Source of the DNA: Burkholderiales bacterium
GTDB lineage: Bacteria; Pseudomonadota; Gammaproteobacteria; Burkholderiales; SG8-41
Direction of reading: 5' to 3'
Assembly: GCA_043743335.1 (NCBI GenBank)
Contig: JAYTWR010000149.1
Span: 11,924-75,923, forward strand
DNA length: 64,000 bases
The notes under the pieces are model-generated. The model was not told the origin of the DNA. It did not search any database and worked only from the letters and a program-made list of their open reading frames with translations. The position numbers and the translations under genes are program-made. This document shows positions 5,394 through 61,713 of the stretch, one piece after another. Numbering within the stretch: position 1 is the first letter of the stretch; each line of letters opens with the position of its first letter.

Positions 5394-6407
5394 ATGAAAG
5401 CAGTGGTATTGAACGAACACGGCGGTCTGGAAAAATTGCAGATCGTGAACGATTTTCCCGACCCGGTGGTGGTGGAGGGGCACGTCGTTATCAAAGTCGG
5501 CGCGACGTCGTTTAATTATCACGATGTGTTCACGGTGCGTGGCATGCCCGGCATCAAGGTGCCGATGCCGATGATTATTGGCTTGGATATCGCGGGCGAA
5601 ATTCTTGAAGTCGGTAGCGGCGTTAGCGGCGTTAGCGGCTGGAAAAAAGGCGACCGCGTGCTGGTGAATCCGCTCAACAAGAAAAAGGGCTTGATGGGCG
5701 AAATGATGCACGGCGGTCTAGCGGAAAAATGTCTGGTAGCTGCCGATCAATTGATTGCCATGCCGAACGAGGTGAGCTACGAACAAGCCGCCTCGCTGCC
5801 GGTGGCTTACGGCACGGCGCACCGCATGATCATCACTCACAACACCATCAAAAAAGGTGACAAGGTACTGGTGCTGGGCGCGAGCGGCGGCGTGGGTACG
5901 GGGTGCGTACTGCTGGCGAAAATGCTGGGCGCGGAAGTCATTGCCTGCGCTTCGAGTGCAGACAAAATCCAGCGCTTGAAAGACCTCGGTGCGGATCACG
6001 TCATCAATTACAAAGACACTGATTTCTCCAAGTGGGCCATCGAAAAATTCGGCAAGCCGCAACGCCGCAACAACGAAGGCGGCGTGGATGTGGTGATCAA
6101 CTTCACGGGCGGCGATACGTGGGGGCCGACGCTGCGTTGCGTGAAACGCGGCGGCAAAATTCTGGTGTGCGGTGCAACGGCGGGCTACGACCCGAAAGAA
6201 GACCTGCGCTATGTGTGGAGCTTTGAGTTGCAGATCATCGGCTCCAACAGCTTTTACGACGAGAACCTCAAAGCGCTGATGGACATGATTCAGCAAGGCA
6301 CGATGAAGCCGGTGATCGACGAAGTACTGCCGCTGGAACGCGCTGCCGAGGGCCTGCGTTTAATTGAAAACCGCGAAGTGTTTGGCAAGGTCATCATAAA
6401 ACCGTAA
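5394..6407 (+). CDS. zinc-type alcohol dehydrogenase / quinone oxidoreductase (MDR family)
   Basis: 337 aa with GDRV, the GASGGVG Rossmann motif and MDR length. Contains an in-frame 9-bp triplication (GSGVSGVSG). Confidence 0.85.
   Translation: MKAVVLNEHGGLEKLQIVNDFPDPVVVEGHVVIKVGATSFNYHDVFTVRGMPGIKVPMPMIIGLDIAGEILEVGSGVSGVSGWKKGDRVLVNPLNKKKGLMGEMMHGGLAEKCLVAADQLIAMPNEVSYEQAASLPVAYGTAHRMIITHNTIKKGDKVLVLGASGGVGTGCVLLAKMLGAEVIACASSADKIQRLKDLGADHVINYKDTDFSKWAIEKFGKPQRRNNEGGVDVVINFTGGDTWGPTLRCVKRGGKILVCGATAGYDPKEDLRYVWSFELQIIGSNSFYDENLKALMDMIQQGTMKPVIDEVLPLERAAEGLRLIENREVFGKVIIKP
5613..5639 (+). repeat. 9-bp tandem repeat x3, in frame in the MDR dehydrogenase
   Basis: GGTAGCGGC GTTAGCGGC GTTAGCGGC encodes GSGVSGVSG. 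Confidence 0.9.
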
Positions 6408-6434
6408 CTAATTGATTTTATTGAGTTATTTTAA
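6405..6434 (-). repeat. AT-rich junction element, exact core (6405-6417)
   Basis: TAACTAATTGATTTTATTGAGTTATTTTAA. It begins with the ADH stop codon and ends 7 nt before the next ATG. Confidence 0.85.
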
Positions 6435-9855: not shown

Positions 9856-9884
9856 AAAATACTCAATAAAATCAATTAGTTATG
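9856..9884 (+). repeat. AT-rich junction element, exact core AATCAATTAGTTA (9870-9882)
   Basis: AAAATACTCAATAAAATCAATTAGTTATG abuts the rlmB start codon (9853-9855) and fills most of the rnr-rlmB spacer. Confidence 0.85.
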
Positions 9885-12403: not shown

Positions 12404-12440
12404 GTAGAACTCAGGTAGTTGCAGTGCAGGGCTGACGAAT

Positions 12441-12544: not shown

Positions 12545-13887
<1,343 letters not shown>

Positions 13888-13892
<5 letters not shown>

Positions 13893-19201: not shown

Positions 19202-21769
19202 TTGATACACACCTCAATCAGCAGGAAGGTAGCCTTTGGCGCTGGCGTCATTGTTTTGCTCGCCGTATTCGCCATGGGCACCACCTATTTCATGGCGGCG
19301 GCGGCGATCAAGGCACTGCAAGAGTCGAACGAGCTTTATCAGGCGATGCAGACATCGACCGCCGCCATGCAAGTGGACACCATGGCGGTAGGTTTTGATG
19401 TGCTGCAATATTTCGAAGCGGGCGCGCCGGCGCATCGCCAGTCTTATCAAGAACGCAGCCTACGGCTCGCCCAATTTGCCGAGCGCTTGCTCTCGCTGGC
19501 GCGGTTTCGTGCGTGGCAGGAAATCGGGCCGCTGGTGGCCGAAAAATTGCGGGCATTAGACAAACTCTGTTTAGACCTTATGGCTCAGCGCGATCAGGGC
19601 CAATCCGCTTCGGCGCAGCATGAAAACGTTGCCAAGCTGTTGAAATTACAGCAAGAAACGGTCGAGCTGGTCGGCACTCGTATCAAACCCAAATTGAAGG
19701 TACTGAGCAACGAGGCTGAAAACAAAGCCGGCAACGTAATGATGTGGGTGTTTTTTCTGGCGGGCGGCACGTCGCTACTGCTGTCGCTGTTGGCAGTCTT
19801 CGCGGGCCATTACGTCAGGCGCGCCATTGTCAAACCGGTGCAGCAGCTCGCGGCAAGCGCCAACACCGTGGCCAGCGGTGATTTGAGCCATCGCGTCAAG
19901 CTCACGGCGGACGCCGAGTATATGGCGCTGGCGCGAGACTTCAACAACATGGTCACGCAGTTGCAAATCACCACCGTGTCCAAAACCATGCATGAAGATC
20001 AGGCGACTCAACTACGCGCCTTGCTCGATGGCGTGCGCGATTACGCCATATTTTCCGTTGACGATGAAGGCTATGTCACGAGCTGGAACAGCGCCAGCAC
20101 GCGCATTCTGGGCTATCAGGCCAAAGAAATGGAAGGCGTTTCCTTTGCCCGCATCTTCAAAAATACCACCGAGGCGCGTGAAATCCGCGACGAAGGTTTT
20201 GCAGCCATTAAGGCGACTGGCCGTTTTGAAACCGATACCCATTTGATTAATGCCAGCGGCACGGAATTTGAAGCCAACCTCGTTGTCACGCCCCTCAGCG
20301 CCGTCACCGGTGACGCCAAGGGTTATTCGGTCGTAGTGCGTGACATCACCGAGCGCATGAAAACCGAGCGCCATATCGAGCAATTGGCGACGCGCGATCC
20401 CCTGACAGGCTTGTCCAACCGCAGCATGCTGATGGCGCAAATGTCAGCGGCGATTGCCCGTGCATCGCGCGCGCAATCACAACTGGTGGTGATGTTTATC
20501 GATTTGGATCGCTTCAAGATCATCAACGATACGCTGGGCCACACCGCCGGTGACGAGCTGCTGATCGAGTGCGCCAAGCGCCTGACCGACTGCGTGCGCG
20601 AGGATGATGTGGTGGCGCGGCTCGGTGGCGATGAGTTTGTGGTGCTGCTGTCCGGCGCAACCGGCGCTGCGAGCATTACGCCGATTGTGGATCGCATGCT
20701 CAAGTTGCTGACGACACCCTATCACTTGCGCGGCAATGACGCACAGACTTCCGCCAGCATCGGCATTTGCGTCTATCCCGCCGATGGCAGCGATGTCGCC
20801 ACGCTGATGAAAAATGCCGACATTGCGATGTACCACGCCAAGGCATTGGGTCGCAACAACTACCAGTTCTACGAAGAAGAAATGAACCAGCGCATGTTAA
20901 AGCGCACACAACTCGAACGTGAGCTGCGCGCGGCGCTGGAGAACGGCGAATTCGCCCTGTTTTATCAGCCGCAGGTTGTCGTGGAGACCGGCGCTATCCA
21001 GGGCGCTGAGTCGTTGATCCGCTGGCACCACCCGACGCGAGGATTGGTGTCGCCAGCCGAATTCATTCCCGTGGCCGAAGAAACTGGCCTAATCATCCCC
21101 TTGGGCGAGTGGATACTCGATCATGCCTGCCGCACGATTAAAACGTGGCACGAAAATGGCGTGAATATCCCCTACATTGTCGTCAACGTTTCAGCGGCGC
21201 AACTGAGCAATGATCTGGTGAGCTCTGTGCGCCAAGCCTTGGTCACGCACGGTATTGCGGCCAGTTGGCTGATGCTCGAAATCACTGAAACCATGCTCAT
21301 GGAGCGTGTCGAAGAAGCCATTTTGATCTTGCGCCGCATACGCGAGCTTGGCATACGCATCGCCATGGACGACTTCGGCACCGGGTACTCATCGCTCAGC
21401 GTGCTGCAACGCCTGCCGCTGGATACGCTCAAAATCGACCGCAGCTTTGTCAGCGCCATTGACGACGAGACCGACAACGCGCGCGCCGTGGCCATCATCG
21501 GTGCGATCATCGCCATCGCCAAAGAGCTCAATCTCAGCGTCGTGGCGGAAGGCGTCGAAACGCCCACGCAATTGGCGTTTCTGCGCACCCTCAATTGCGA
21601 TACCTATCAGGGCTACCTCTACAGCAAGCCCATCGATACCATTGCCATGGAAGCCCAGTATTCAGCACCGGCAAAATCTGTGCTGGAAGACGCCCAAGGT
21701 CGCGCCATTACCATGACGGTCAAGGTTAACCTCGAACTCTCTACTGAGGAAATTCAGTTAAGTGTTTGA
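19202..21769 (+). CDS. membrane sensor with HAMP-PAS-GGDEF-EAL domains (TTG start)
   Basis: Two TM helices, HAMP, a PAS region, intact GGDEF (RLGGDEFVVLL) and an EAL domain (ESLIRW, DDFGTGYSS, KIDRSF). Confidence 0.85.
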   Translation: MIHTSISRKVAFGAGVIVLLAVFAMGTTYFMAAAAIKALQESNELYQAMQTSTAAMQVDTMAVGFDVLQYFEAGAPAHRQSYQERSLRLAQFAERLLSLARFRAWQEIGPLVAEKLRALDKLCLDLMAQRDQGQSASAQHENVAKLLKLQQETVELVGTRIKPKLKVLSNEAENKAGNVMMWVFFLAGGTSLLLSLLAVFAGHYVRRAIVKPVQQLAASANTVASGDLSHRVKLTADAEYMALARDFNNMVTQLQITTVSKTMHEDQATQLRALLDGVRDYAIFSVDDEGYVTSWNSASTRILGYQAKEMEGVSFARIFKNTTEAREIRDEGFAAIKATGRFETDTHLINASGTEFEANLVVTPLSAVTGDAKGYSVVVRDITERMKTERHIEQLATRDPLTGLSNRSMLMAQMSAAIARASRAQSQLVVMFIDLDRFKIINDTLGHTAGDELLIECAKRLTDCVREDDVVARLGGDEFVVLLSGATGAASITPIVDRMLKLLTTPYHLRGNDAQTSASIGICVYPADGSDVATLMKNADIAMYHAKALGRNNYQFYEEEMNQRMLKRTQLERELRAALENGEFALFYQPQVVVETGAIQGAESLIRWHHPTRGLVSPAEFIPVAEETGLIIPLGEWILDHACRTIKTWHENGVNIPYIVVNVSAAQLSNDLVSSVRQALVTHGIAASWLMLEITETMLMERVEEAILILRRIRELGIRIAMDDFGTGYSSLSVLQRLPLDTLKIDRSFVSAIDDETDNARAVAIIGAIIAIAKELNLSVVAEGVETPTQLAFLRTLNCDTYQGYLYSKPIDTIAMEAQYSAPAKSVLEDAQGRAITMTVKVNLELSTEEIQLSV

Positions 21770-21790
21770 TTTTATTGATAATTTTAAACG
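21759..21790 (-). repeat. AT-rich junction element, exact core (21759-21771)
   Basis: TAAGTGTTTGATTTTATTGATAATTTTAAACG contains the stop codon of the GGDEF-EAL gene, between convergent genes. Confidence 0.8.
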
Positions 21791-23660: not shown

Positions 23661-23680
23661 CTAACTAATTGTTTTATATG
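23661..23680 (-). repeat. AT-rich junction element, variant core (23662-23674)
   Basis: CTAACTAATTGTTTTATATG; the terminal ATG is the MoxR start codon. Confidence 0.7.
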
Positions 23681-24592
23681 ACAAAAATAAACGAGGCTCT
23701 CGCGCAGGTCAGTCACATCATTTTGGGTAAAGAGCGCCAAATCCGCTTGGCCCTAGCGTGCCTGATCGCGCGCGGCCATTTGTTGATTGAGGACGTGCCC
23801 GGCGTCGGCAAAACCACCCTCGCCCACGCGTTAGCCGGCACCTTGGGGCTGGCGTTTCACCGCATCCAGTTCACCAGCGATTTACTGCCGGCGGATGTGC
23901 TGGGCGTGGCGGTATACAACAGCGACGCCGCCCAATTTGAGTTCCACCCCGGGCCAATTTTTTCGCAGGTGGTGCTGGCCGACGAAGTCAACCGCGCTAC
24001 ACCCAAAGCGCAAAGCGCGTTGCTCGAAGCCATGGAAGAACAGCAGGTCACTATCGAAGGCGAAACGCGCAAACTGCCGGAGCCCTTTTTTGTCATCGCC
24101 ACGCAAAATCCCTCACGCCAGATCGGCACGTTTCCGCTGCCGGAGTCGCAACTGGATCGCTTCTTAATGCGTATCGAACTCGGCTACCCAGACGCCGCTG
24201 CCGAACGCGCGCTGCTGCGCGGTGAAAACCGCCGCGATTTGCTGAGTCAACTTAAGCCTGCCTTGCAGCCCGCCGATTTGCTGGCGCTGCAGCGCGAGGC
24301 GCGGCAGGTGCATGTCTCCGACGCGCTGCTCGATTACATCCAAGCGCTGGTCAACCACACGCGCCACAGCGCCGGTTACGCGGGCGGCCTATCGCCGCGC
24401 GCGGCACTGGCGCTGGTGCAGGCCGCGCGCGCTTGGGCGCTGCTGGATGCGCGTACACACGCCGTGCCGGAAGACGTGCAAGCCATTCTGCCGGGCGTGG
24501 TGAGTCACCGGCTGCAAGCCGCCAACGATGGCAGCGGCGGCAGTGGCAATGACGTGGCGGTGCGTCTCTTGGCTGCGGTGGCGATTCCGTAG
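23678..24592 (+). CDS. MoxR-family AAA+ ATPase
   Basis: LIEDVPGVGKTT Walker A, ADEVNRATPKAQSALLEAMEE, FFVIATQNP. Confidence 0.9.
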   Translation: MTKINEALAQVSHIILGKERQIRLALACLIARGHLLIEDVPGVGKTTLAHALAGTLGLAFHRIQFTSDLLPADVLGVAVYNSDAAQFEFHPGPIFSQVVLADEVNRATPKAQSALLEAMEEQQVTIEGETRKLPEPFFVIATQNPSRQIGTFPLPESQLDRFLMRIELGYPDAAAERALLRGENRRDLLSQLKPALQPADLLALQREARQVHVSDALLDYIQALVNHTRHSAGYAGGLSPRAALALVQAARAWALLDARTHAVPEDVQAILPGVVSHRLQAANDGSGGSGNDVAVRLLAAVAIP

Positions 24593-25612: not shown

Positions 25613-27591
25613 ACGCAGTCCAGCCTGCCGCCATCAGCCTGCGCAATACCGTGTGGATTACGCTGACGTTGGCGTTGATTGCCGCACCGCACGCCGAGCG
25701 CCTGCCTTGGTGGTTGAGCCTGCTGGCAGCAGCGTTTTGCGCTTGGCGGCTGTATATCGCGCGCATGCGACTGGCGCTGCCCGCGCGTTGGCTCATGGTT
25801 TTGATCGTGGCCGCCGGATCCGTGGCCATTTTTGTGCAGTACCGCACTTTGCTCGGGCGCGATGCGGGCGTCGCGCTGCTGGTGCTGATGATCTCGTTAA
25901 AGCTGATGGAAACGCGCACCCAGCGCGATGGCATGGTACTCGCCTTCATCGGCTACTTTTTGGTCATTACCAATTTTTTCTACTCGCAGTCGATCCCTAT
26001 GGCGCTGTATTTGCTGGCCTGTGTGTGGCTGATCACCGCCACCATGATGGGGCTGCAATACACCTACACGCGCGAACCCGCCGCTTATCGTACGCAAGTG
26101 CGCGCTCAATTGCGCGCCACGGGCATCATGCTGGCGCAGTCGGCGCCGCTGATGATTGTTTTCTTTTTGCTGTTTCCGCGTGTGCAGGGGCCGCTGTGGG
26201 GCATGCCGTCAGATGCCTTCGCCGGCGTCACGGGCCTCTCAGAAAGCATGAGTCCGGGCACGCTGAACAAACTGGTGTTTTCCGAAGAAGTCGCCCTGCG
26301 CGCCACGTTTGCGGGCCGTGTGCCGCCGCAGAACCGGCTGTATTGGCGCGGGCCGGTACTGATTGATTTTGATGGCCGCACGTGGACTGCCGCGCCGCGT
26401 GGGCTACGCAATCAAATCGAAGTGAATCGCCGCGAAAACCCTGTGCGATACACCGTGACCGTAGAGCCGCACAACCGGCGTTGGCTGTTTGCGCTGGATA
26501 TCCCCGGCACACTGCCGCCGCGCGCGATGATCACGGTAGATCATCTGTTACTGTCGCAAATGCCCATCACCAGTCGTCTGCGCTACGACATGGAGTCGTT
26601 TCTCGACTACACCATCGGCGCGGATTTCAACCCAATTTCTGCGCGCATGCTGGCGTTGCCGCGCAACTTCAATCCGCAAACCCGCGAGCTGGGACAACAA
26701 CTGCGCGCGCAACACAACGACAATCAGGCCATCGTGACCGCCGCGCTCACGCTGCTGCGCGAGCAGAAGTTTGTCTATACGCTAGAGCCGCCGCTGCTTG
26801 GCACGCATGCGGTGGATGAGTTTTTATTCAAAACACGCGCGGGCTTTTGCGAACACTTTGCTTCGGCCTTTGTCGTGCTGATGCGCGCGGCGGGCGTGCC
26901 GTCGCGGGTAGTCACCGGCTATCTGGGGGGCGAATACAACTCGCTCGGTGAGTACTTAATTGTGCGTCAATCCGATGCGCACGCGTGGGCCGAAGTGTGG
27001 ATCGAAAATCGCGGCTGGGTGCGCGTCGATCCGACCAACTCGGTGTCGCCCGCGCGCGCCGAGGGCGGTCTCGCGGCGGCGCTGCCGGACGGCATTTCGC
27101 TGCCGCGTAGCCTGCGTGAAAGCTATCCGCTACTGCATCAGTTGTCCTTGACGCTGGATTCGCTGGCCAATGCCTGGAACCAAACCATCCTCGGCTACAA
27201 CCTCGAAACCCAGCGCGCGCTGATGTTGCGTGCAGGGCTGGAAGACGCCGATTGGCAAACGTTGGTGATACTGCTGATCGCGGCCACCGGCGTCACCACG
27301 TTGCTGCTGGCGCTGTTCATGCTGCGCAACCGTGCGCGGCAGCGCGACCCCGTGCTTGATGCCTGGCTGTTGTTCTGCGCCAAAGCCGCGCATGCGGGCG
27401 TGGCACGGCACGCCGCCGAAGGCCCGCAGGATTTCGCCAACCGCTTAGCCAAAGCGCGGCCTGACATCGCGGCTGACGCGCAGGTGATTACGCGACTCTA
27501 TGTTGGGTTACGCTACGCCAGCACTGAAGCCCCCGGCGAGCGCCATGAGCTACAGCGGCGCGCGCAGCAGTTCACCATAAAATCCATTTAA
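25609..27591 (+). CDS. tgpA: transglutaminase-like membrane protein (TgpA family)
   Basis: ATGA overlap with the DUF58 stop, polytopic N-terminus, and Cys-His-Asp core (FCEHFASAF, SDAHAWAEVW, VRVDPT). Confidence 0.8.
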   Translation: MNAVQPAAISLRNTVWITLTLALIAAPHAERLPWWLSLLAAAFCAWRLYIARMRLALPARWLMVLIVAAGSVAIFVQYRTLLGRDAGVALLVLMISLKLMETRTQRDGMVLAFIGYFLVITNFFYSQSIPMALYLLACVWLITATMMGLQYTYTREPAAYRTQVRAQLRATGIMLAQSAPLMIVFFLLFPRVQGPLWGMPSDAFAGVTGLSESMSPGTLNKLVFSEEVALRATFAGRVPPQNRLYWRGPVLIDFDGRTWTAAPRGLRNQIEVNRRENPVRYTVTVEPHNRRWLFALDIPGTLPPRAMITVDHLLLSQMPITSRLRYDMESFLDYTIGADFNPISARMLALPRNFNPQTRELGQQLRAQHNDNQAIVTAALTLLREQKFVYTLEPPLLGTHAVDEFLFKTRAGFCEHFASAFVVLMRAAGVPSRVVTGYLGGEYNSLGEYLIVRQSDAHAWAEVWIENRGWVRVDPTNSVSPARAEGGLAAALPDGISLPRSLRESYPLLHQLSLTLDSLANAWNQTILGYNLETQRALMLRAGLEDADWQTLVILLIAATGVTTLLLALFMLRNRARQRDPVLDAWLLFCAKAAHAGVARHAAEGPQDFANRLAKARPDIAADAQVITRLYVGLRYASTEAPGERHELQRRAQQFTIKSI

Positions 27592-27605
27592 AATCAATTA
27601 GTTAC
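27577..27605 (+). repeat. AT-rich junction element, exact core (27592-27604)
   Basis: ATAAAATCCATTTAAAATCAATTAGTTAC contains the tgpA stop codon, lies 25 nt upstream of the SDR ATG, and is 28/29 identical to the 28451 copy. Confidence 0.9.
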
Positions 27606-28446: not shown

Positions 28447-29436
28447 ATGAATAAAATTCATTTAAAATCAATTAGTTACAAAATATTTCCCCACGCGGTG
28501 TGGGCGCTGCTGCTGGCTGCAGGCGCGTCATTCGCCCAGCCCTACCCCACCAAACCCGTGCGCATTGTCGTGCCCTACCCGCCCGGCGGCGGCGTGGATG
28601 TGGTGGCGCGCGTGGTGGGCCGTAAGCTGACGGACACGTTGGGCCAGCCGGTGATTGTCGAAAATCGCGGTGGTGCCTCGGGCGCTTTGGGCGCTGACAT
28701 CGTGGCTAAAGCCCCGCCCGACGGCTACACCATGGGCCTCATGACCAGCACCGTGCTGATGGTGCCCGCGCTGCAAAAAGTGCCTTACGACGCGGCCAAA
28801 GACTTTGCGCCGATTATTCTGTTTGCCTCGATATCGAACATCTTGGTGGTGCATCCATCGCTGCCGGTGAAATCATTGCAGGACGTGATGCGTCTTGCGC
28901 GCGAGCGTCCCGGCGAGCTCACCCACGCCACCTCCGGCCCCGGCAGCGTACCGCATCTGATGATGGAGCTGCTGCGCACCATGACGCCGCGCTTTGACAT
29001 TGTGCACGTGCCGTACAAAGGCAACGCGCAAGCCATTACCGATTTGCTTGGCGGGCACATCACCATGCACATTTCGTCCATGCTGTCGGCTGTGCCCTAC
29101 ATCAAAACCGGTCGCTTACGCCCGATAGGCGTCACCAGCGCCAAGCGCTCACGCGCGGTGCCAGACGTGCCAACGTTCGCCGAGTCCGGCGCGCCCGGCT
29201 ATGACGTGAGTTCGCTGTGGGGATTTCTCGCGCCCGCGCAAACGCCGCCGGACATCATTAACCGGCTGTATGGCGATATCGGCAAAGTGCTACGTTACCA
29301 AGATGTCAACGACCAGCTCGTCGGGCAAGGCGCGGATATTTCCGGCGCAGGCCCGCAGGAATATGGCGCGCTGTGGCGGGCCGAACTCGCCAAATGGCCC
29401 AAGGTAGTAGCTGCGGCAAAAATCAAGGCGGAATAA
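28447..29436 (+). CDS. Bug/TctC-family tripartite tricarboxylate transporter substrate-binding protein
   Basis: QPYPTKPVRIVVPYPPGGGVDVVAR and VPYKG; 329 aa. The first 12 codons are encoded by the AT-rich junction element. Confidence 0.85.
   Translation: MNKIHLKSISYKIFPHAVWALLLAAGASFAQPYPTKPVRIVVPYPPGGGVDVVARVVGRKLTDTLGQPVIVENRGGASGALGADIVAKAPPDGYTMGLMTSTVLMVPALQKVPYDAAKDFAPIILFASISNILVVHPSLPVKSLQDVMRLARERPGELTHATSGPGSVPHLMMELLRTMTPRFDIVHVPYKGNAQAITDLLGGHITMHISSMLSAVPYIKTGRLRPIGVTSAKRSRAVPDVPTFAESGAPGYDVSSLWGFLAPAQTPPDIINRLYGDIGKVLRYQDVNDQLVGQGADISGAGPQEYGALWRAELAKWPKVVAAAKIKAE
28451..28479 (+). repeat. AT-rich junction element, exact core (28466-28478)
   Basis: ATAAAATTCATTTAAAATCAATTAGTTAC lies inside the first codons of the Bug gene (NKIHLKSISY). 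Confidence 0.9.
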
Positions 29437-30515: not shown

Positions 30516-30544
30516 TATAATAATCAATAAAATCAATTAGTTAC
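30516..30544 (+). repeat. AT-rich junction element, exact core (30531-30543)
   Basis: TATAATAATCAATAAAATCAATTAGTTAC, 25 nt upstream of the malonyl-CoA decarboxylase ATG. Confidence 0.85.
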
Positions 30545-33067: not shown

Positions 33068-33077
33068 GTTTAGTTCC

Positions 33078-33119
33078 TAACTATTTGAATAATTTAATAA
33101 AATTATTTGTAGTATTTTC
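33078..33119 (-). repeat. AT-rich junction element, degenerate/expanded copy (core 33078-33090, 1 mismatch)
   Basis: TAACTATTTGAATAATTTAATAAAATTATTTGTAGTATTTTC encodes the tatD tail ENTTNNFIKLFK and its stop codon. Confidence 0.6.
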
Positions 33120-33839: not shown

Positions 33840-34832
33840 TTAGGCTCGCAGCAGTTGGGCGTAACGCAGCATCAAATCTTCCAGTAGCAGACGCGGGTTT
33901 AGAGGGTGATTCACAATCCGCTGAAAACGCACCAATTCGCGGTGATAGCGCATAATTTCCAATGTATTCATGCGTTTTGTGGCAGAAATTAGCGCATCTT
34001 TTCGGTCAGGATTGTAACGTAATGGCTGCCCCAAACTCAGTCGCACCAAATCATAACTCCAGCGCTGTAACCAATTGATTATTTGAGGAATTGGCTGAGC
34101 AGCGCAACGCTCTGCCACGGCCAGCGGGTCGAATTCCCGGCTGGAAAGCCCCTCCAGCAGTTGCTGCCGCCCTGCCCAATAGTCCGGCGTATCGAGTTCT
34201 ACGGCCAGCAAAGGGGCTCCGCCAGCTTGGGCCAAGGCCAAATCGGGCTGCGAAATGCCGCTTTTTGCCAACCAGGCGGCGGCTTCCGGCGCAGAGGGCG
34301 GTGGCAGTGCGATTTGTTGACAGCGGCTGCGTAGGGTCGCAGGCAGCATGTGAGACCGGTCGCTGACCAGTAAGAAATGGGTGTGGGGCGGCGGCTCTTC
34401 TAGGCTTTTCAACAACGCATTGGCCGCGTTGACGTTCATCGCTTCAGCGGGCTGCACCACCACCACTTTGACGCCACTGCGATGCGCGCTGATATTGATA
34501 AACTCTGCTAAGGAACGCACCTGCGCTATCGATATATCGCGCTTTTTCTTTTTATCGGACGGTTCGTCGTCAGCGGCGGCTTCAGCGATTTCCGGCTGTA
34601 ACAGGCGGTAATCGGGGTGGTTCCCGGTGTCGAACCAATGGCAGGCTTGACACGCGCCGCAGGCCTGCAGCGGCGCAGTCGGTGCCTCGCACAGCAGGCC
34701 TTTGGCCAGCGCTGCGGCAAACTCACGCTTGCCGATGCCGGCTGGACCTTTGAATAAAAGGGCATGCGGCAACTGCGCCGCGCGCTGGGCGAGTTGCTGG
34801 TACTGCCTTTCATGCCATTTATAAATAGTCAT
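33840..34832 (-). CDS. holB: DNA polymerase III delta' subunit
   Basis: [22 protein letters not shown] zinc module, [11 protein letters not shown]. Confidence 0.85.
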
Positions 34833-34858
34833 TTAAAACAATTACTTACAATTACTTC
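34829..34858 (+). repeat. AT-rich junction element with duplicated core (variant AAACAATTACTTA, 34836-34848)
   Basis: TCATTTAAAACAATTACTTACAATTACTTC. ACAATTACTT occurs twice in tandem. The copy carries the tmk stop, the holB start and the tmk tail. Confidence 0.75.
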
Positions 34859-38620: not shown

Positions 38621-38654
38621 GAACATGGGACATGGGATATCGAACATGGGACAT
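38621..38654. repeat. direct repeat GAACATGGGACAT x2 (21-bp period) in the acpP-fabF spacer
   Basis: Copies at 38621-38633 and 38642-38654, with an internal ACATGGG doublet. Confidence 0.8.
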
Positions 38655-40759: not shown

Positions 40760-40808
40760 AAATTATTCAATAAAATCAAATAGTTAAATAGTTAAATCGT
40801 TAAATACG
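40760..40808 (+). repeat. AT-rich junction element, exact core (40774-40786), followed by an 8-bp tandem array
   Basis: TTATTCAATAAAATCAAATAGTT then AAATAGTT AAATCGTT AAATACG. It spans the whole fabH-fabD spacer, including the fabH stop. Confidence 0.85.
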
Positions 40809-41798
40809 AACCATGACTGCGCCCCAGGTAAACCCGCCGCCCACCCCTTCGAGCAGCACGTGCTGCCCCGGCTTGATGCGGCCATCACGCACCGCCGTGT
40901 CGAGCGCCAGCGGCACCGATGCGGCTGAAGTGTTGGCATGACGATCCACCGTGGTCACCACTTTGTCCATCGGCAACGCGAGCTTTTTCGCCGTAGCCTG
41001 AATGATACGGATATTGGCTTGGTGCGGTATCAGCCAGTCGATTTGCGATTTGTCCATGTGGTTGGCGACGAGCGCCTCGTCGGCCACCTCGCCCAGCACG
41101 CGCACCGCGAATTTGAACACCGCATTGCCTTCCATTTGCAACAGCGGCCGTCCGCTCACTTGCCCGCGATTCACGCTGCCCGGCACGGAAAGAATATGCG
41201 CGTGGCTGCCATCCGCATGCAAATGCGTGGATAAAATACCCGGCGTGTCGCTACGCCGCAAAACCACCGCGCCCGCGCCGTCGCCGAACAACACACAAGT
41301 GGTGCGATCCTGCCAATCGAGGATGCGCGAATACACCTCCGCGCCCACCACCAGAATATTTTGATACTGCCCCGAGCGCATGAAATGATCGGCCGTGGTC
41401 AGCGCGTAAACAAAGCCGCTGCACACTGCCTGCACATCAAACGCCGGACAATTTTTAGCGCCGAGCTTGGCCTGTAAAATGCACGCCGTGCTGGGGAACA
41501 CCATATCCGGCGTGGTGGTGGCGACAATAATCAGACTCAAATCCGCCGCATTGGTGCCCGCCGCTTCCAGCGCGCGCTGGCTGGCTTTGAGTGCGAGATC
41601 ACTGGCGAATTCGTGGTCCGCAGCGATGTGACGCTGGCGTATGCCGGTGCGGCTGAATATCCATTCGTCCGAAGTCTCGACGCTACCTTCGAGGTCTTTA
41701 TTGGAAAGCACCTTGGCTGGCAGGTAGCTGCCCGTGCCGACGATGCGCGAAAAGTGAGTCAAGTGAGGCGTCAGGTGAGGCGTCAATGGAGGCGTCAA
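40800..41798 (-). CDS. fabH: 3-oxoacyl-ACP synthase III (probable true start TTG at 41762)
   Basis: [11 protein letters not shown], active-site [16 protein letters not shown]. The longest ORF adds [12 protein letters not shown], encoded by a 12-bp tandem array. Confidence 0.92.
41754..41798. repeat. 12-bp tandem array at the plsX-fabH junction
   Basis: GTGAGGCGTCAG GTGAGGCGTCAA TGGAGGCGTCAA plus a partial unit. On the minus strand each unit starts with an in-frame TTG or CTG and encodes LTPH. Confidence 0.85.
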
Positions 41799-42859
41799 GC
41801 GGCAATTCCGTTATTCTGCGGCAGCGGTGCCTGCGCCTGCGACTGCACATGGATATGCGTCAGGCGCTCCGAGATATGCGCCAGCATGCCGGTGCGCACT
41901 TCTTCGACCGCGCGCCGCAACGCGCATTCAAAACTGTAGGCGTCCGCCGAGCCGTGGCTCTTCAACACAATGCCGCGCAAGCCCAGCAAACTCGCGCCAT
42001 TGTAGCCCCGATAATCCACGCGCTTTTTGAATGAATTTAGCACCGGCATCGCCACTATCGCCGCGAGTCGCGTAAAAATATTGCGGGCAAATTCTTCGCG
42101 CAAAAACGTGCGAATCAAATGCGCCAGTCCCTCGGCCGATTTCAGCGCGACATTGCCGACAAACCCATCGCACACCACCACGTCGGTGGTGCCTTTAAAA
42201 ATATCGTTGCCTTCGACGTTGCCGTAAAAATTGAGATCGCTGGCGCGCAGCAACTCGGCAGCGCGTTTCACCACCTCGTTACCCTTGATGTCTTCTTCGC
42301 CGATGTTGAGCAAGCCCACCGTCGGCGCGGTTTTGTGCTCCACGCAGGCCACTAACTCTGAACCCATGATGCCGAATTGCAGCAAATGCTCGGCAGTGCA
42401 ATCGACGTTCGCCCCGAGATCCAGCACATACACTTTGCCGGTGAGCGTGGGCATGATCGAGGCAATCGCTGGCCGGTCGATGCCCGGCAGCGTCTTCAAC
42501 ACATAGCGCGAAATCGCCATCAGCGCGCCCGTATTGCCCGCGCTCACAGCGGCCTGCGCCTCGTTGGATTTCACCAGATCGGCCATCACGCGCATGGACG
42601 AATCTTTCTTGGAGCGCATGGCCACTGCGGGCGGCTCATCCATGCCCACCACTTCGGAGGCGTGACGTACCACCAGCCGGTCGCCAAACGCGGCGGGGCT
42701 GGATTTATTGAGTTTGAGTTGCGCCTCGATTTCGGCAGCAAGGCCCACGAGGACCACCCCGGCGTCGGCGTCATCGCGCAGCAAGCCGAGCGCCGCAGGC
42801 ACTGTGACCGAGGGGCCGTGATCGCCCCCCATGCAGTCAACCGCTACCGTTACCCGCAT
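41795..42859 (-). CDS. plsX: phosphate acyltransferase PlsX
   Basis: [16 protein letters not shown] and CDGFVGNV. The upstream in-frame extension to 42943 has no support. Confidence 0.92.
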
Positions 42860-43160: not shown

Positions 43161-43190
43161 GATTAACGGGATATTAACGGGATACTAACT
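43161..43190. repeat. 11-bp tandem repeat x2.7 in the rpmF 5' leader
   Basis: ATTAACGGGAT ATTAACGGGAT ACTAACTG, immediately upstream of the rpmF SD. Confidence 0.85.
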
Positions 43191-43199
43191 GGGGTTACG

Positions 43200-43228
43200 T
43201 TATAACTAATTGATTTTAATAAATATTA
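43200..43228 (-). repeat. AT-rich junction element, exact core (43202-43214)
   Basis: TATAACTAATTGATTTTAATAAATATTAT in the yceD-rpmF spacer. Confidence 0.85.
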
Positions 43229-44680: not shown

Positions 44681-45120
44681 GCCGCTGACACCTACCCCGC
44701 AAAAAGCATACGCCTCATACACGGCTACGCCTCCGGCAGTTCTATGGACCTCAACGCCCGAGCCGTCGCGCAAAAACTCGCCGAAGCGCTGGGTCAGCAA
44801 ATCATCGAATGCTGCACGTGCCGTATCGCGGCGGCGGCACCACCGCCATCACCGATCTCGTCAGCGGCCGCGTCGATATGATGTGGAACAACCTCGCCTT
44901 CCTGCTGCCGCAGGTGCAAATCGGCAAACTCAAAGCGCTCGGCGTCACCGGCGTGCGCCGCATCTCCAGCATCAAGCACGTGCCGACCATCGCCGAAAGC
45001 GGCCTGCCCGGCTATGAAATCGCTGGTTGGCAAGGCCTACTCGGCCCCGCTGCGCTGCCGAAAGACATCGTTGCGCGACCGCAAAGCGCGCTGGTGAAAA
45101 TCTTTGCGCAACCTTGCTAG
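44681..45120 (+). pseudogene. Bug/TctC-family receptor, internally deleted and frameshifted
   Basis: N-terminal piece (TYPAKSIRL...LGQQIIE) joins out of frame near 44800 to the mid/C-terminal piece (LHVPYRGGG...GWQGLLGPAALPKDIV). About 110 aa are missing and there is no signal peptide. Confidence 0.7.
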
Positions 45121-45141: not shown

Positions 45142-45426
45142 TCAATCCGCTTGAAAAAGCCGCTTGATAACGCGCCATCTCAAACCAAAATCCGCGTCGC
45201 TTTCAGGGAGTTGCCAAACGTCATGCAAATGATCCGGCATCACGCAATACGTAATACGTAATACGTAATACGCCAGCGAGCGGAATGCGTGGCCTGCCTG
45301 TGCAACCCAAAACGCATTGCGCAGGCGATCAATCTCCGTTACCCGCATGCGGCTTTCGCAATCGGCAAGATTGACCGTGAAAAAGAATGTCCCACCCGAG
45401 GCGAGACTTCGTCGATAGCGCGACAT
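45142..45426 (-). pseudogene. RayT/IS200-like (Y1 HUH) transposase, N-terminal fragment
   Basis: MSRYRRSLASGGTFFFTVN...PDHLH..W.LPESDADF..RW matches the REP-associated tyrosine transposase N-terminus. It ends at 94 aa, lacks the catalytic Tyr region, and carries a 7-bp tandem expansion. Confidence 0.7.
45242..45274. repeat. 7-bp tandem repeat (ACGTAAT) x4.7 inside the RayT-like fragment
   Basis: ACGCAAT ACGTAAT ACGTAAT ACGTAAT ACGCC. Three extra units insert 7 aa (YVLRITY) next to the HUH motif. Confidence 0.9.
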
Positions 45427-46548: not shown

Positions 46549-48642
46549 CTACTTCAGCCGCATCACCGCATCAACAGCTACCGCTCCGTGCCCGTCAACC
46601 CCCACAATCACCGGATTGATCTCCACCTCCGCCAGCCTATCCGCGTGATCGGCAATCAGCCACGACACGCGGCTGACCGTATCGGCTAGCGCGTCAATAT
46701 CGCACGCGGGTTTGCCGCGATAACCTTGCAGGATTTTCGCGCCCTTGAGGCGCAGCACGAGTTCTCGTGCGCTGGCCGCATCGAACGGCGCATAGGCACG
46801 CACCACGTCCTGAAACAGCTCGGCATACACGCCGCCCATGCCCAGCATGACCAACGGGCCGAATGAGGGGTTGTTGAGCGCGCCGATGATGAACTCGACG
46901 CCAGTGGCCATTTCTTCCACCAGCCAGCCACGGATGCGCGCCGTGGGTTGATGCGCAGGCACGGCCTGCTGCATCATCATAAGTGATTGTTTTAATTGAG
47001 TAATATTGGATATGCTAATACGCACGCCGCCGGCTTCGGTTTTGTGCGGCAAGTCGGGACTGACGACTTTGAGTGCCACCGGAAAATTCAGCTCACAGCG
47101 TGCGAGCGCGGCCTCGTCGCCCGCCGCGATGAACATCCGCCGGGGCGTGGCGATGCCGTAAGCGGCTAGGCAAGCTTTGCCCTGCAATTCATCCACGCCG
47201 TCGGTGCCGTTCATCGGCAGCGGCTGTTTTGCGCAAGCGCGCACCGGCGCGCGCCGCACGGCGGCCCGCTCGCACTGGCGTGTGAAATGATTCAATGCCG
47301 CAGCGGCAAACACCAAGCGGCTCGGCGCTTCAAAACACGGCACGCCGCCGGCTTCTACCGTCGGCAACCACGATGCTGAGTCGTTGACGGCACCGGAGAG
47401 GCTGACGAGTATGGGCTTATCACTGGCGTTGGCATCGGTGACAAAATGCTCGGCCCACACGGGCGCGTCGCGCCCTGGATACGAGCGCAAAAACAGCATG
47501 TCCACGTTGGCGTCATCGAGCACAGCTTGTGTGGCTGCGCGAAACGCGGGTTCGTTTTGTGCGATGGCGGCGGTGATGTCGATGGGGTTCGCCATCGACG
47601 CAAAATCCGGCAGCACGGGTTTTAACGCTGCCAGTGTCGACGCGCTCATAGCCGGCAGCGCCAACTGCGCGCGCTCGCAGGCATCAGCCAGCAACACCCC
47701 TGCTCCGCCGCTGGCGGTGACGATCGCGGCTCGGTTGCCGCGCGGGCGTTTGCGCGAACGAAACACGCGCGCGGCGTCAATCAAATCGTAAATTTCATGA
47801 ATCTCAATAAAGCCGCCTTCACGAAACGCGTCACGATAATAATCGTAATCTTCAGTGAGATTGGCCGTGTGCGACACCGCTGCGCGACTACCGGCGTGCG
47901 TGTTGCCGACTTTCCACACCGCGATGGGCTTACCGATTTCGAGCGCGCGGCGGCCCAGCGCGCGCAGGCGTTTGCCGTCGCTGATGCCTTCCATGTACAC
48001 CGCGATCAACTTGGTGGCTTCGTCGGCGAGAAAATACTCGATGAAATCCAGCGCACCCAAGCTGCTTTCATTGCCGGTAGAAACCATGTGGTCAAAGCCG
48101 ATGCCAGCTTCTTGGCAGAACGTCATGATCGAATAGGCAAAGCCGCCGCTCTGCGAAATCATCGCCACCGGCCCGCCGCGCCAATCGGTCTTGCGAAACG
48201 TCGCGCCGAATCCGGCAAACACGCGCGTGCGCAAATTCATCATACCGATGCAATTGGGCCCCACCGCGCGTACGCCGGAGGTTTTAAGCGCCGCCTGTAA
48301 TTGCGCTTCGAGCGCTGCACCCCGTTCGCCGATTTCGCGAAAGCCCGCGCTCAAAATCACCGCGTGGGTCATGCCGTTGCGCCCGCAGGCTTCGATGGCG
48401 CCGGGCACATCCACCGCCGGCACCGCGATGACCGCCAAATCACAGCGCTGCGGCAGCGCGTCGGGGCTGGCGTAACACGGCAAGCCGTTGATTTCGGTGT
48501 AGCGCGGATTCACCGCAAATACCTTACCGGCGTAGCCCTGATGCGTCAGCAAGTGCAGCGGCGCGCCACCCGGCCGACGCCTATCCTGCGTGGCGCCGAC
48601 AATGGCCACGGATGACGGGTTGAACAGCGGCTCTAGTGACAT
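46549..48642 (-). CDS. ADP-forming acyl-CoA synthetase (CoA-binding + succinyl-CoA-ligase-like + ATP-grasp fusion)
   Basis: SVAIVGAT...YAGKVFAVNP, AVGPNCIGMM, C-terminal ATP-grasp region; 697 aa. Contains an in-frame AT-rich element copy. Confidence 0.8.
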   Translation of the reverse strand: MSLEPLFNPSSVAIVGATQDRRRPGGAPLHLLTHQGYAGKVFAVNPRYTEINGLPCYASPDALPQRCDLAVIAVPAVDVPGAIEACGRNGMTHAVILSAGFREIGERGAALEAQLQAALKTSGVRAVGPNCIGMMNLRTRVFAGFGATFRKTDWRGGPVAMISQSGGFAYSIMTFCQEAGIGFDHMVSTGNESSLGALDFIEYFLADEATKLIAVYMEGISDGKRLRALGRRALEIGKPIAVWKVGNTHAGSRAAVSHTANLTEDYDYYRDAFREGGFIEIHEIYDLIDAARVFRSRKRPRGNRAAIVTASGGAGVLLADACERAQLALPAMSASTLAALKPVLPDFASMANPIDITAAIAQNEPAFRAATQAVLDDANVDMLFLRSYPGRDAPVWAEHFVTDANASDKPILVSLSGAVNDSASWLPTVEAGGVPCFEAPSRLVFAAAALNHFTRQCERAAVRRAPVRACAKQPLPMNGTDGVDELQGKACLAAYGIATPRRMFIAAGDEAALARCELNFPVALKVVSPDLPHKTEAGGVRISISNITQLKQSLMMMQQAVPAHQPTARIRGWLVEEMATGVEFIIGALNNPSFGPLVMLGMGGVYAELFQDVVRAYAPFDAASARELVLRLKGAKILQGYRGKPACDIDALADTVSRVSWLIADHADRLAEVEINPVIVGVDGHGAVAVDAVMRLK
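46980..47010 (-). repeat. AT-rich junction element copy inside a CDS, in frame (variant core 46980-46992)
   Basis: TAAGTGATTGTTTTAATTGAGTAATATTGGA. The reverse complement aligns to AAAATACTCAATAAAATCAATTAGTTA and encodes SNITQLKQSL in the acyl-CoA synthetase. Confidence 0.75.
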
Positions 48643-48672
48643 AACTAGTTGATTTTATTGAATATTTTTTAA
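48640..48672 (-). repeat. AT-rich junction element, exact core (48642-48654)
   Basis: CATAACTAGTTGATTTTATTGAATATTTTTTAA carries the acyl-CoA synthetase start codon, the deacetylase stop codon and the deacetylase tail LKNIQ. Confidence 0.85.
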
Positions 48673-49742: not shown

Positions 49743-50834
49743 ATGAAGCTCGCTACATTCATGATGCCGCTCCACCCGCCGGGTAAGAGCTATCCGCAAT
49801 CGCTGCGCGAAGATCGCGAGGCCATTATTCTCGCCGACGAGCTCGGCTATGAAGAAGCCTATGTCGGCGAACACGTCACCGACGCCGCAGAAACCGTCAC
49901 GCACTGCATGACCTTTCTCGCCACGCTGATTCACGCCACCAAGCGCATTAAGCTCGGCACCGGCACTATCAATATTCCGACGTCGCATCCGGCGGCCATT
50001 GCCGCCCAGGTGGCGATGATGGATAACCTGCTCGAAGGGCGCTTCATCATGGGCATTAGCCCCGGCGGGCTGGCGTCTGACGCTGAGGTGTTCGGCAATC
50101 TGGACAAAGACCGCAACGCCATGTTTGTCGAGGGCATCAACATGGTGCTCAAGATCTGGGAATCCGAGCCGCCGTATAACCTTGAAGGCAAATACTGGAA
50201 AGTCACCACCGAAAAAACCAGCATTCCTGAAATCGGTCAGGGCCGTATCCTGCGCCCGTTCCAGAAGCCGCATCCGCCTATCGTCGGCACGGTCGTGGCA
50301 CCGTACTCGAAAGGCGTCATTGCGATGGCAGAGCGCGGCTGGCTGCCGATTTCAGCCAATTTTTTGATGCCCGCATGGGTGAAAACCCATTGGCCGAATT
50401 ACGCCGAAGGCAAAAAAAATATCGGCCAGGTTGCCGATACCGCAGACTGGCGCATCGCCAAAAGTATTTTTGTCGCCGACGACGAAGCCACAGCGCAGCG
50501 CTACGGTAAATCGGCAGAAGGCCCGTATCACTTTTATTTCAAGCAACTGGTGCGCAAGCTGGTGGGCTTTAGCGGGCGCAGTAATTTATTCAAGGTCGAT
50601 CAAAGCATGCCGGATTCGGCGATTACGCCAGAGTACGTCACCGACAAGCTGGTGCTCGCCGGCACGGTCAACAGCGTGGTCGATCAGATACTCGCGTTTC
50701 GTGAAGCCGTCGGCGACTTCGGCACGCTGGTTTACGCCTGCCACGACTGGATCGATCCGGCGCTGGGCAAGCGCAGCATGCAGTTGATGGCGGAGCAGGT
50801 GATGCCGAAGGTCAATGCGGCTCTGGGAAAATAG
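49743..50834 (+). CDS. LLM-class (luciferase-like) flavin-dependent oxidoreductase
   Basis: MKLATFMMPLHPP...GYEEAYVGEH is typical of the LLM family. The upstream in-frame extension is tandem-repeat sequence. Confidence 0.8.
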   Translation: MKLATFMMPLHPPGKSYPQSLREDREAIILADELGYEEAYVGEHVTDAAETVTHCMTFLATLIHATKRIKLGTGTINIPTSHPAAIAAQVAMMDNLLEGRFIMGISPGGLASDAEVFGNLDKDRNAMFVEGINMVLKIWESEPPYNLEGKYWKVTTEKTSIPEIGQGRILRPFQKPHPPIVGTVVAPYSKGVIAMAERGWLPISANFLMPAWVKTHWPNYAEGKKNIGQVADTADWRIAKSIFVADDEATAQRYGKSAEGPYHFYFKQLVRKLVGFSGRSNLFKVDQSMPDSAITPEYVTDKLVLAGTVNSVVDQILAFREAVGDFGTLVYACHDWIDPALGKRSMQLMAEQVMPKVNAALGK

Positions 50835-50840
50835 AACAAT

Positions 50841-50863
50841 CCATATAAATCAAGGAGTTACAT
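50841..50863 (+). repeat. AT-rich junction element, exact core AATCAAGGAGTTA (50848-50860)
   Basis: CCATATAAATCAAGGAGTTACAT. The variable NNNN is GGAG, giving the AAGGAG SD of the downstream TTG-start gene. Confidence 0.7.
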
Positions 50864-51862
50864 TTGTTAAACGTCGCAGTCGTCGGCATGGGTTGGTGGG
50901 GCAAAATCATTGTTCCGCTAATCAAGACCAGTGCAAAACTCAGTGTCACTACCGTCGTGGAAGTGAATGCACCGGCGATCGCGGATTTTGCGCAGGCGCA
51001 AGGCGTCAAAGTGGTTACCGATTTCAATGCCGTGCTGCGCGATCCGACAATACAGGCCGTGGTGCTGGCGACGCCGCACACGCTGCATACCGATCAAATC
51101 GTCGCTGCGGCCAACGCTGGCAAGCACATCTACTGCGAAAAGCCGCTGTCGATGACGCGCGCCGACGTGTTGCGCGCGATCCAATCGGTCAACGACAACA
51201 AGGTGGCGCTGGCGGTGGGCCACGAGCGGCGCTTTGAGCCGCCGATTATCGAGGCCATGCGCGTGATTCGTTCCGGCGAGCTGGGCGTGCCACTGCAAAT
51301 CGAAGCCAATTTCAGCCAGGATAAATTTCTCACGCTGCCGGCCGATAACTGGCGGCTGTCTGGCAAAGAAGCGCCGGCCGGCCCGATGACGGCGACCGGC
51401 ATTCATCTGCTGGATCTGTCGGTGGGCGTGTTTGGCGAGGCCGAGCGCGTGTTCGCCAGTTGCAAACAACTCGGCAGTCAGCTCGTCAACGGCGATACGC
51501 TGGCCATTCTGGTGTCGTTCAAAAACGGCGGGCATGCGCTGTTGAGCGCCATCCTCGCCACGCCGTTTGAAGGCCGCTTCGCGGTCTATTGCACCAAGGG
51601 CTGGATCGAGGTGCGCGACAAAACCCATCCCGAAGCACCGGAAGGCTGGACGCTCACCACCACGCATCAGGGCGGCAAGCGCGAAGTGCGGGAATACGCC
51701 CCGGCGTCCACCGTGCTCGCCAATCTGGAAGCGTTTGCTGATGCCGCAGCGGGCCGCGCGCCCTACCCCGTGCCGCAGTCGCAGATGATTGCTAATATTT
51801 CCGCGCTGGAAGCCATTTTCAAATCTGCATCCAGTGGCGAAATCGTCGCGGTGGAATCGTGA
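50864..51862 (+). CDS. Gfo/Idh/MocA family oxidoreductase (TTG start)
   Basis: VAVVGMGWWGK Rossmann N-terminus and EKPL; AAGGAG SD 6 nt upstream. Confidence 0.8.
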   Translation: MLNVAVVGMGWWGKIIVPLIKTSAKLSVTTVVEVNAPAIADFAQAQGVKVVTDFNAVLRDPTIQAVVLATPHTLHTDQIVAAANAGKHIYCEKPLSMTRADVLRAIQSVNDNKVALAVGHERRFEPPIIEAMRVIRSGELGVPLQIEANFSQDKFLTLPADNWRLSGKEAPAGPMTATGIHLLDLSVGVFGEAERVFASCKQLGSQLVNGDTLAILVSFKNGGHALLSAILATPFEGRFAVYCTKGWIEVRDKTHPEAPEGWTLTTTHQGGKREVREYAPASTVLANLEAFADAAAGRAPYPVPQSQMIANISALEAIFKSASSGEIVAVES

Positions 51863-52767: not shown

Positions 52768-52808
52768 TTAAATAACCCATTGATTTTTAACAGTTTTAGT
52801 ATTTTATT
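52768..52808 (-). repeat. AT-rich junction element, exact core (52773-52785)
   Basis: TTAAATAACCCATTGATTTTTAACAGTTTTAGTATTTTATT fills the entire FAH-Gfo spacer. Its left arm TTAAATAACCCA is shared with the 54841 copy. Confidence 0.75.
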
Positions 52809-54840: not shown

Positions 54841-54876
54841 TTTTAAATAACCCAATAAAATCAATTACTTAAATAG
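54841..54876 (+). repeat. AT-rich junction element, exact core (54859-54871)
   Basis: TTTTAAATAACCCAATAAAATCAATTACTTAAATAG, 10 nt beyond the prpE-like stop codon. Confidence 0.85.
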
Positions 54877-61683: not shown

Positions 61684-61713
61684 CGTAAGTATTTGTTTTT
61701 ATTATGTTTTATT
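61684..61713 (-). repeat. AT-rich junction element, variant core (61686-61698)
   Basis: CGTAAGTATTTGTTTTTATTATGTTTTATT fills the sucA-sucB spacer. Its core is identical to the 13878 copy. Confidence 0.7.

Follow-up and report, generated by a model that had tools for sequence, protein, structure and literature searches.

Does a repeated AT-rich element stand in for the Shine-Dalgarno (SD) sequence of the genes beside it? The question is raised by a 64,000-nt stretch of a Burkholderiales contig (JAYTWR010000149.1, positions 11,924 to 75,923; referred to here as the window), in which such an element of about 30-35 bp recurs at gene boundaries, and in particular by the junction 50835-50866 (AACAATCCATATAAATCAAGGAGTTACAT-TTG), where a copy of the element contains an AAGGAG motif in front of a TTG start codon. 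The original prediction, made from the sequence alone, held that genes beside the element mostly lack an SD, and that the element may act as an unstructured A/U-rich translation initiation region. Our analysis bears out the SD deficit and points to another cause: judged from its sequence, the element is a double-stranded DNA site, most probably one for the integration host factor (IHF), and its dense packing would displace SDs. We give this explanation a probability of about 60%.

The consensus of the element is gTAACTAATTGATTTTATTGAgTTATTTTA in the window and gTAAsTAwTTGwTTTTAwwga.wTTTT across the family. With up to three mismatches the 20-mer has nine matches in the window and none in shuffled sequences, and three of the copies in the 64 kb are exact. 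A position weight matrix (PWM) was built from 18 window copies, with a Markov model of the window's intergenic DNA as the null; at or above a score of 25.7 it finds 21 matches in the window, against 0.007 expected. The conservation is sequence-specific (~30 bits) and spans ~35 bp (about -7 to +29), with an invariant TAA..T..TTG.TTTTA and a T-tract at positions 24-27, which becomes an A-tract when the element is read in the orientation of an IHF site. In the window there is about one element per 3 kb, filling about one-third of the intergenic spacers. Strand or replication polarity was rejected, as the copies are not skewed (9 on the + and 12 on the - strand).

For the window and related loci together, 107 copies were classed by spacer type: (i) tandem spacers (59), (ii) convergent spacers (11), (iii) divergent spacers (10), (iv) the inside of called genes (9), and (v) contig edges (18). 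The tandem copies comprise 43 in forward (sense) and 16 in reverse (antisense) orientation, and reversed copies score as high as forward ones. About 40 of the 107 are no farther than 40 nt from a start. The TAA of the element doubles as the upstream stop codon in several tandem spacers. The ATG there frequently follows 6-11 nt past the 20-nt core, inside the T-rich tail, the distance from stop to start being mostly 22-51 nt. In long spacers the element stands beside the upstream stop in 10 cases and beside the start in 5.

An SD was scored where the pairing energy (dG) with the anti-SD was -4.5 or lower, a threshold with a background of 24.5% at internal in-frame ATGs, and the analysis was also run at a cut-off of dG <= -6 and on 4-nt motifs. 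A start no more than 40 nt from an element was counted as element-adjacent. Several of the curated window starts were fixed by profile coordinates, and 45 of the 56 were recovered by an SD-blind gene caller, which weights codon usage and start-codon type alone; this caller shifted the TTG start of the flagged junction to an internal ATG. The same caller was applied to a pooled sample of 56 loci (514 kb), composed of GC-rich metagenome contigs and relatives carrying the element.

All nine starts named in the original prediction (9855, 48642, 34832, 23678, 40756, 6441, 52809, 27630 and 30569) follow or overlap a copy of the element, and they do lack an SD, with anti-SD pairing of +1.5 to -2.2 kcal/mol; rlmB has at most a 3-nt GAG as an SD-like match. 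Names and start positions proved correct for rlmB, holB, fabD, SDR, the two Gfo/Idh/MocA genes and the two CoA ligases, while the MoxR product has a weak match to AAA ATPase models and the supposed malonyl-CoA decarboxylase (ATG 30569) has no NCBIfam match. The four SDs cited for genes without the element are likewise present: rpmF (AGGAG, -8.8), FAH (GGAGG, -10.0), the yeaQ-like gene (AAGGGGG, -10.2) and the cupin gene (AGGA, -5.8). The generalization drawn from them, that clear SDs precede genes lacking the element, goes too far, since only 18 of 42 such starts in the window have one and 24 (57%) do not. The frequencies are nevertheless unequal. In the curated window an SD precedes 1 of 14 element-adjacent starts (the flagged start alone) versus 18 of the 42 others (Fisher p=0.021); with dG <= -6.0 the contrast weakens to 1/14 versus 14/42 (p=0.08). 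For the pooled loci the corresponding values are 5/40 (12%) and 182/432 (42%), with p=1.5e-4.

This depletion is mainly a packing effect, because SDs are absent when the element touches the start (0 of 20 starts with a free distance of at most 4 nt) and present at 4 of 8 starts with 5-16 nt free, where GGAG stands between the T-tail and the ATG (loci L165, L129, L091 and L118; L numbers are our locus labels). The absence at touching starts holds under stricter criteria (versus 26-28%, p=0.003); the baseline SD frequency is 26-42%, depending on the criterion. When loci were instead picked by protein orthology, with no ascertainment by the motif and with genes called externally, a strong SD was present at 7 of 10 element-adjacent starts, and the other three were orthologous starts of the second Gfo/Idh/MocA gene (Gfo-2, ATG 52809), at which the element abuts the ATG. 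The rlmB gene shows that the absence of an SD need not stem from the element, as far as orthologues can tell: a strong SD is found in 15 of 60 betaproteobacterial orthologues and is absent from 45, nearly all of the 60 being without the element, and in the closest relative (L002) rlmB still has no SD although the element lies 119 nt from its ATG.

The flagged junction lies between a luciferase-like monooxygenase gene (49743-50834, TAG stop) and a Gfo/Idh/MocA oxidoreductase gene (50864-51862). Its element-like segment, AATCAAGGAGTTA, occupies 50848-50860, and the predicted AAGGAG is indeed there, separated by TTACAT (6 nt) from the TTG at 50864-50866. This TTG is the true start: residue 1 of the encoded protein aligns to position 1 of the TIGR04380 profile; in public data, 332 aa is also the length of most of its close homologues. 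The copy itself is a genuine, diverged member of the element family, because it scores 25.7, the level reached by 21 window matches against the 0.007 expected per composition-matched intergenic set. Its core mismatches are confined to positions 6-7, the least constrained part of the element core. The four core bases, taken in the original prediction as variable (NNNN), are in fact w-T-A-s in the family.

At the orthologous junction of L204, L207, L208 and L209 (85-88% protein identity), (C/G)AAGGAG or GAAGGAA stands 6-8 nt before a TTG or GTG, and there is no element (PWM scores -18 to 0); none is present there in the outgroups L210 and L211 either. Element-like flanks occur at this junction solely in the window (25.7) and in the 95%-identical relative L206 (22.3), which also keeps an SD of this kind before its TTG/GTG. 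Because orthologues without the element retain the AAGGAG-type SD and the TTG/GTG start, the combination of this SD with a weak start is ancestral and older than the element-like flanks. The element-like sequence arose around an existing SD, with GGAG falling on core positions 6-7. The order of events originally proposed, in which the GGAG of the core creates the SD, is thereby turned round, and mutation of an element copy into an SD was rejected after the orthologue comparison. The case argues that the element would be no substitute for an SD where a gene needs one.

Since the sequence-specific motif occurs in both orientations, whatever reads the element would have to recognize double-stranded DNA. 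The reverse complement of the element, AAAA(w)...TAAAA(T/A)CAA-wTAs-TTA, fits the IHF consensus WATCAANNNNTTR preceded by a 5' A-tract, that is, the two-part layout of an A-tract followed by WATCAA-NNNN-TTA. The core WATCAANNNNTTR has 22 matches in the window versus 1.2 expected, and in the 67 copies that did not serve as bait the C-A-A and T-T-A bases are invariant or nearly so (91-100%). When phage lambda was scanned with the PWM trained on window copies alone, attP H2 came out at rank 3, cos I1 at rank 4 and H' at rank 10, and H1 at rank 12 with a core-only matrix; ranks 1-2 lie 64-196 bp upstream of pL. The cos I1 site has been placed between R3 and R2 (PMC4669245). The resemblance to the lambda sites (attP H', H1 and H2; cos I1), which is one of sequence, thus comprises the core AATCAA-wTAs-TTA, the A-tract about one helical turn 5' of it, the conserved extent of ~35 bp and the top ranks of these sites. 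The element differs in being far denser, with copies far more uniform than the E. coli sites, in constraining the N positions (w-T-A-s) and in having AAACAA in 40% of its copies.

Repeated extragenic IHF sites are reportedly known from E. coli as RIP/RIB (BIME-2) elements at the 3' ends of transcription units, which Boccard and Prentki (1993) and Oppenheim et al. (1993) are said to have described. The element is likewise a repeated extragenic IHF-type site, often located just past stop codons. Unlike RIP/RIB, it has no flanking REP palindromes and no terminator-like hairpins, and it is also found between divergent genes, directly against starts and within the 5' ends of coding sequences; its share of the spacers (about one-third in the window) appears far higher.

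Under the IHF reading, the site would be wedged into very short spacers, with one gene's stop on one side and the next gene's start on the other, its TAA often serving as the stop codon and its T-rich tail running to the ATG. It would take up the -5 to -15 slot, so that no SD could sit there; the loss of SDs at abutted starts would follow because the element occupies this slot, as a consequence of packing and not as the purpose of the element. The abutted genes would presumably be translated without an SD, aided by an unfolded AU-rich context and by nearness to the upstream stop (termination-reinitiation), and an SD would be kept where a gene depends on it, as at 50864 with its weak TTG/GTG start.

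Several observations weigh against this reading. The orientation bias in tandem spacers, which places the T-rich strand as sense (43:16, p=6e-4), does so because a pure DNA site predicts no such bias. The T of ATCAA is T in 58% of the copies and A in 40% (AAACAA instead of AATCAA), and the family conserves w-T-A-s inside the NNNN, bases that the E. coli consensus does not require. Starts lying 17-40 nt from the element have an SD in 0-1 of 12 cases (p about 0.02-0.04); at the orthologous junctions that we call TctC-2, with the element 19-32 nt off, strong SDs are present. The core-to-ATG distance at Gfo-2 is fixed at 9 nt in four lineages, which looks like selection on the start context. No ihf gene is found within the 64-kb window. 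Finally, the identification of the two top-ranking lambda matches with the IHF sites upstream of pL, at which IHF reportedly stimulates transcription (Giladi and colleagues, 1998), is tentative.

A function as RNA, in which the main role of the element would be that of an unstructured A/U-rich, S1-dependent and SD-independent initiation region, was the proposal of the original prediction, and we consider it improbable, although part of it stands. The minimum free energy (MFE) of the region -30..+30 around the start has a median of -5.8 at element-abutted starts, -11.4 at SD-led starts, -12.4 at other SD-less starts and -17.7 inside genes, so that the abutted starts are markedly less folded; they are also AU-rich and SD-less (0/20). 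Of the abutting copies, 17 of 20 are forward, which would give a U-rich leader, and the forward bias in tandem spacers points the same way, as does the element-to-ATG spacing of Gfo-2, conserved without an SD in L204, L208, L209 and L210. Copies upstream of an SD (TctC-2) or just past the ATG (TctC-1 and the Bug gene at 28447) would also reduce structure at the start. Unstructured starts can replace SDs (PMC3121790, PMC5397173), and the abutted starts resemble known SD-independent AU-rich starts and S1-binding enhancers (PMC3121790, PMC5397173, PMC4611024) in being SD-less and weakly folded. Such leaders, however, need no specific sequence and act in the sense direction only, whereas the element is sequence-specific and occurs in both orientations. 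Conservation of ~30 bits is not needed for a mere lack of structure; the reversed copies (16 in tandem spacers, with further copies in the 11 convergent and 10 divergent spacers) are equally conserved and would yield an unrelated RNA; and in long spacers the element lies nearer the stop (10) than the start (5). It coexists with strong SDs at TctC-1 and TctC-2, the SD of the flagged gene survived the arrival of the element-like flanks, and rlmB lacks a strong SD in most of its orthologues, nearly all of them element-free.

A secondary, co-opted role of the element in SD-independent initiation is possible. The weak folding, the forward bias and the fixed spacing at Gfo-2 fit both SD-independent initiation and termination-reinitiation, and the effects may be due to AU-richness and nearness to the upstream stop rather than to the specific sequence. 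In a stronger version, which strikes us as rather unlikely, a genome-wide IHF-type DNA site would also have been adopted by this streamlined lineage as an intercistronic cassette (TAA stop, 30 nt of unstructured U-rich spacer, ATG). Through S1 capture or 70S reinitiation, the cassette would drive SD-independent initiation at many of the operon-internal genes. Such a role would account for the sense bias of 43:16 and the fixed core-to-ATG spacing at Gfo-2.

Neither orientation of the element gives a stable RNA fold (-1.9 and -0.6 kcal/mol), and Rfam and tRNA scans returned a single tRNA-Leu and nothing at element positions. Promoter or terminator identity was rejected, as none of 11 promoter-like or 35 terminator-like sites at 40-60 kb coincides with an element; hexamer spacing at elements, judged by eye, fits neither sigma-70 nor a leaderless start. 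An FNR-type palindrome was rejected as well, TTGAT-N4-TTGA being a direct and not an inverted repeat. In the searchable literature the element sequence has no match, its motif strings meeting unrelated primers only.

The density (~1 per 3 kb), the occurrence in both orientations, the high information content and the occasional copies within coding sequence would also suit a double-stranded DNA signal read by another nucleoid protein, or a DNA-uptake sequence, as would the restriction to one lineage (absence from 77 other betaproteobacterial RNase R loci) and the conservation of w-T-A-s beyond the IHF consensus. The TCAATAAAAT half of the element resembles the H-NS nucleation motif TCGATAAATT. 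With the uptake sequences of Neisseria (DUS) and Pasteurellaceae (USS) the element shares a short conserved motif, kilobase-scale density, both orientations and restriction to a lineage; unlike them, it resembles IHF sites, is rich in A and T and hardly occurs away from gene boundaries. To our knowledge no uptake sequence resembles the element, which counts against this possibility, and we know of no link of the element to competence. As the IHF match extends over both parts of the footprint, and lambda H2, I1, H' and H1 are picked up by the PWM, a signal for another protein or for uptake is in our opinion doubtful.

Far less probable still is a decayed repeat without host function, resembling a MITE (a miniature transposable element with inverted repeats) or a repetitive extragenic palindrome (REP), with the absence of SDs incidental. 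Such an origin would accommodate the many near-identical copies, including the three exact 20-mers, and the local tandem duplication of the 5' half at two sites. The longest inverted repeat flanking an element has a median length of 7 nt, as against 8 nt at random positions, so no terminal inverted repeats or flanking palindromes exceed the random controls, and MITE/REP identity was rejected on this ground. Moreover, copies are held at orthologous junctions across lineages with proteins 80-88% identical, over which an unselected AT-rich 30-mer in a genome of 58-68% GC would not be expected to persist, and the rnr 3' end of L004 carries the element reversed relative to that of L002.

The element is present in the closest relatives (L002-L004), in L204 and in L207-L210, with the weak copy of L206 at the flagged junction alone, and in numerous contigs from freshwater and soil with 55-68% GC. 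Together with its absence from the 77 RNase R loci mentioned above, this distribution suggests a family restricted to one lineage of uncultured freshwater Burkholderiales. Orthologous junctions still carry their copies where nucleotide identity is about 80% and protein identity 80-88%; in the 9-kb stretch alignable with L002 both junctions keep their elements, among them rnr-rlmB. A forward element abutting the ATG of Gfo-2, without an SD, is found in five lineages (the window, L204, L208, L209 and L210). At TctC-2 (L204 and L207-L210, weakest in L208) a reverse copy is anchored on the upstream TAA and followed by a strong AAAGGAG-type SD, and at TctC-1 a reverse copy lies within codons 2-10 of the TctC signal peptide, behind a strong GGAGG-type SD. 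The Bug paralogue of the window (28447) has the same signal-peptide arrangement without an SD. In these Bug/TctC signal peptides the reverse element falls in the first 10-11 codons (e.g. MNKIHLKSISYK).

The element at the rnr 3' junction of L004 (12150-12169) is opposite in orientation to those of L002 (12395-12414) and the window (9863-9882), which suggests independent gain or inversion at the same junction. Locus L002 (CAMATZ010000017.1), the closest GTDB representative with 87% RNase R identity, belongs to a metagenome-assembled genome labelled 'Bordetella parapertussis'. Among the 80 best loci, named Burkholderia and Paraburkholderia show 55-56% RNase R identity and no named Bordetella occurs, and the label looks wrong.

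If the IHF explanation is true, the SD deficit would be a side effect of an architectural DNA site packed densely into a compact genome, and the window would offer a clear natural case of a DNA-level signal and a ribosome-binding site competing for the same few bases. Need would decide the outcome: coupled, ATG-initiated genes would give up the SD, and a weak TTG/GTG start would retain it. The element is a variant of already known kinds, namely IHF-site repeats and non-SD starts, and the SD finding itself is of moderate interest. Of greater interest is the element family: an IHF-type site in about one-third of the spacers, which persists at orthologous junctions and reaches even into the opening codons of signal peptides. 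Annotation is affected too: gene callers giving weight to SDs will misplace starts beside elements, and the SD-independent caller also erred at the flagged TTG. The coordinates of the features are given in Table 1.

Table 1. Copies of the element and associated features in the window and, where indicated, in related loci.
Feature	Position	Strand	Remarks
Flagged element copy, diverged	50841..50860	-	Forward reading TAACTCCTTGATTTATATGG; reverse complement contains AATCAAGGAGTTA
AAGGAG SD of the Gfo/Idh/MocA gene	50852..50857	+	dG -7.8; 6 nt before TTG
Gfo/Idh/MocA oxidoreductase gene	50864..51862	+	TTG start; TIGR04380 profile and homologue lengths
Forward element	52773..52792	+	Fills spacer before Gfo-2 (ATG 52809); no SD
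Forward element	9863..9882	-	Between rnr stop and rlmB ATG (9855); 7 nt from start
Forward element	6405..6424	+	First TAA is stop of gene 5394-6407; 16 nt before AMP-ligase ATG 6441
Forward element	40767..40786	-	Between fabH and fabD; 10 nt before fabD ATG 40756
Reverse element	48642..48661	+	Across deacetylase stop and ADP-forming acyl-CoA synthetase ATG 48642
Forward element	34829..34848	-	Within last tmk codons; overlaps ATGA tmk/holB junction (holB 34832)
Forward element	23662..23681	+	Contains MoxR-like ATG 23678
Reverse element	27585..27604	-	Over stop of gene 25609-27591; 25 nt before SDR ATG 27630
Reverse element	30524..30543	-	25 nt before ATG 30569
Reverse element	28459..28478	-	Inside codons 5-11 of Bug/TctC gene (ATG 28447)
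Element	21759..21778	+	Convergent spacer; no start codon near
Forward element	13871..13890	-	TAA is stop of gene 13888-15048; conserved at L002 orthologous site
Reverse element	43203..43222	+	56 nt upstream of rpmF, which keeps an AAGGAG SD
Forward element	54852..54871	-	14 nt after stop; next start 184 nt off, with AAGGAG SD
Reverse element	61686..61705	+	Between stop 61714 and ATG 61675
Element in Bug/TctC signal-peptide codons	window 28447-28480; L204 about 1190-1220; L207 about 1255-1286; L208 about 1060-1093		
Spacers with 7-11 bp tandem repeats	9004-9069, 17487-17523, 38623-38654, 43162-43189, 45242-45272		Window

Further element-like sequences were noted in the window. At fabH-fabD (40778-40806) and tmk-holB (34838-34857) the element's 5' half (TAACTATT / AAGTAATTGT) forms a tandem duplication, and TRF reports repeats of period 8 (x3.6) and period 10 (x2). 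An element-like sequence at 46980-46999 (PWM 37.9) falls within the gene for the ADP-forming acyl-CoA synthetase, where it codes for ...ISNITQLKQSLMMM... around residue 548. A weak reverse one (33073-33109, PWM 22) ends in GTTAGGAAC, which supplies the AGGA SD of gene 32429-33067, and is a second instance of such a sequence with an SD at its border.

Short tandem repeats of 7-11 bp are present in many spacers (e.g. CTCGTTGTT x7.3), and in L002 GGATTAACA repeats (12420-12455) are inserted between its element and the rlmB start. At the plsX/fabH junction (41758-41799) a 12-bp repeat (x3.5) gives fabH an odd terminus, and the fabH start is ambiguous. Bug/TctC gene fragments without complete reading frames are found at 3044-3200 and 44809-45120; these are likely pseudogenes and indicate a Burkholderiales genome rich in Bug-family receptors.

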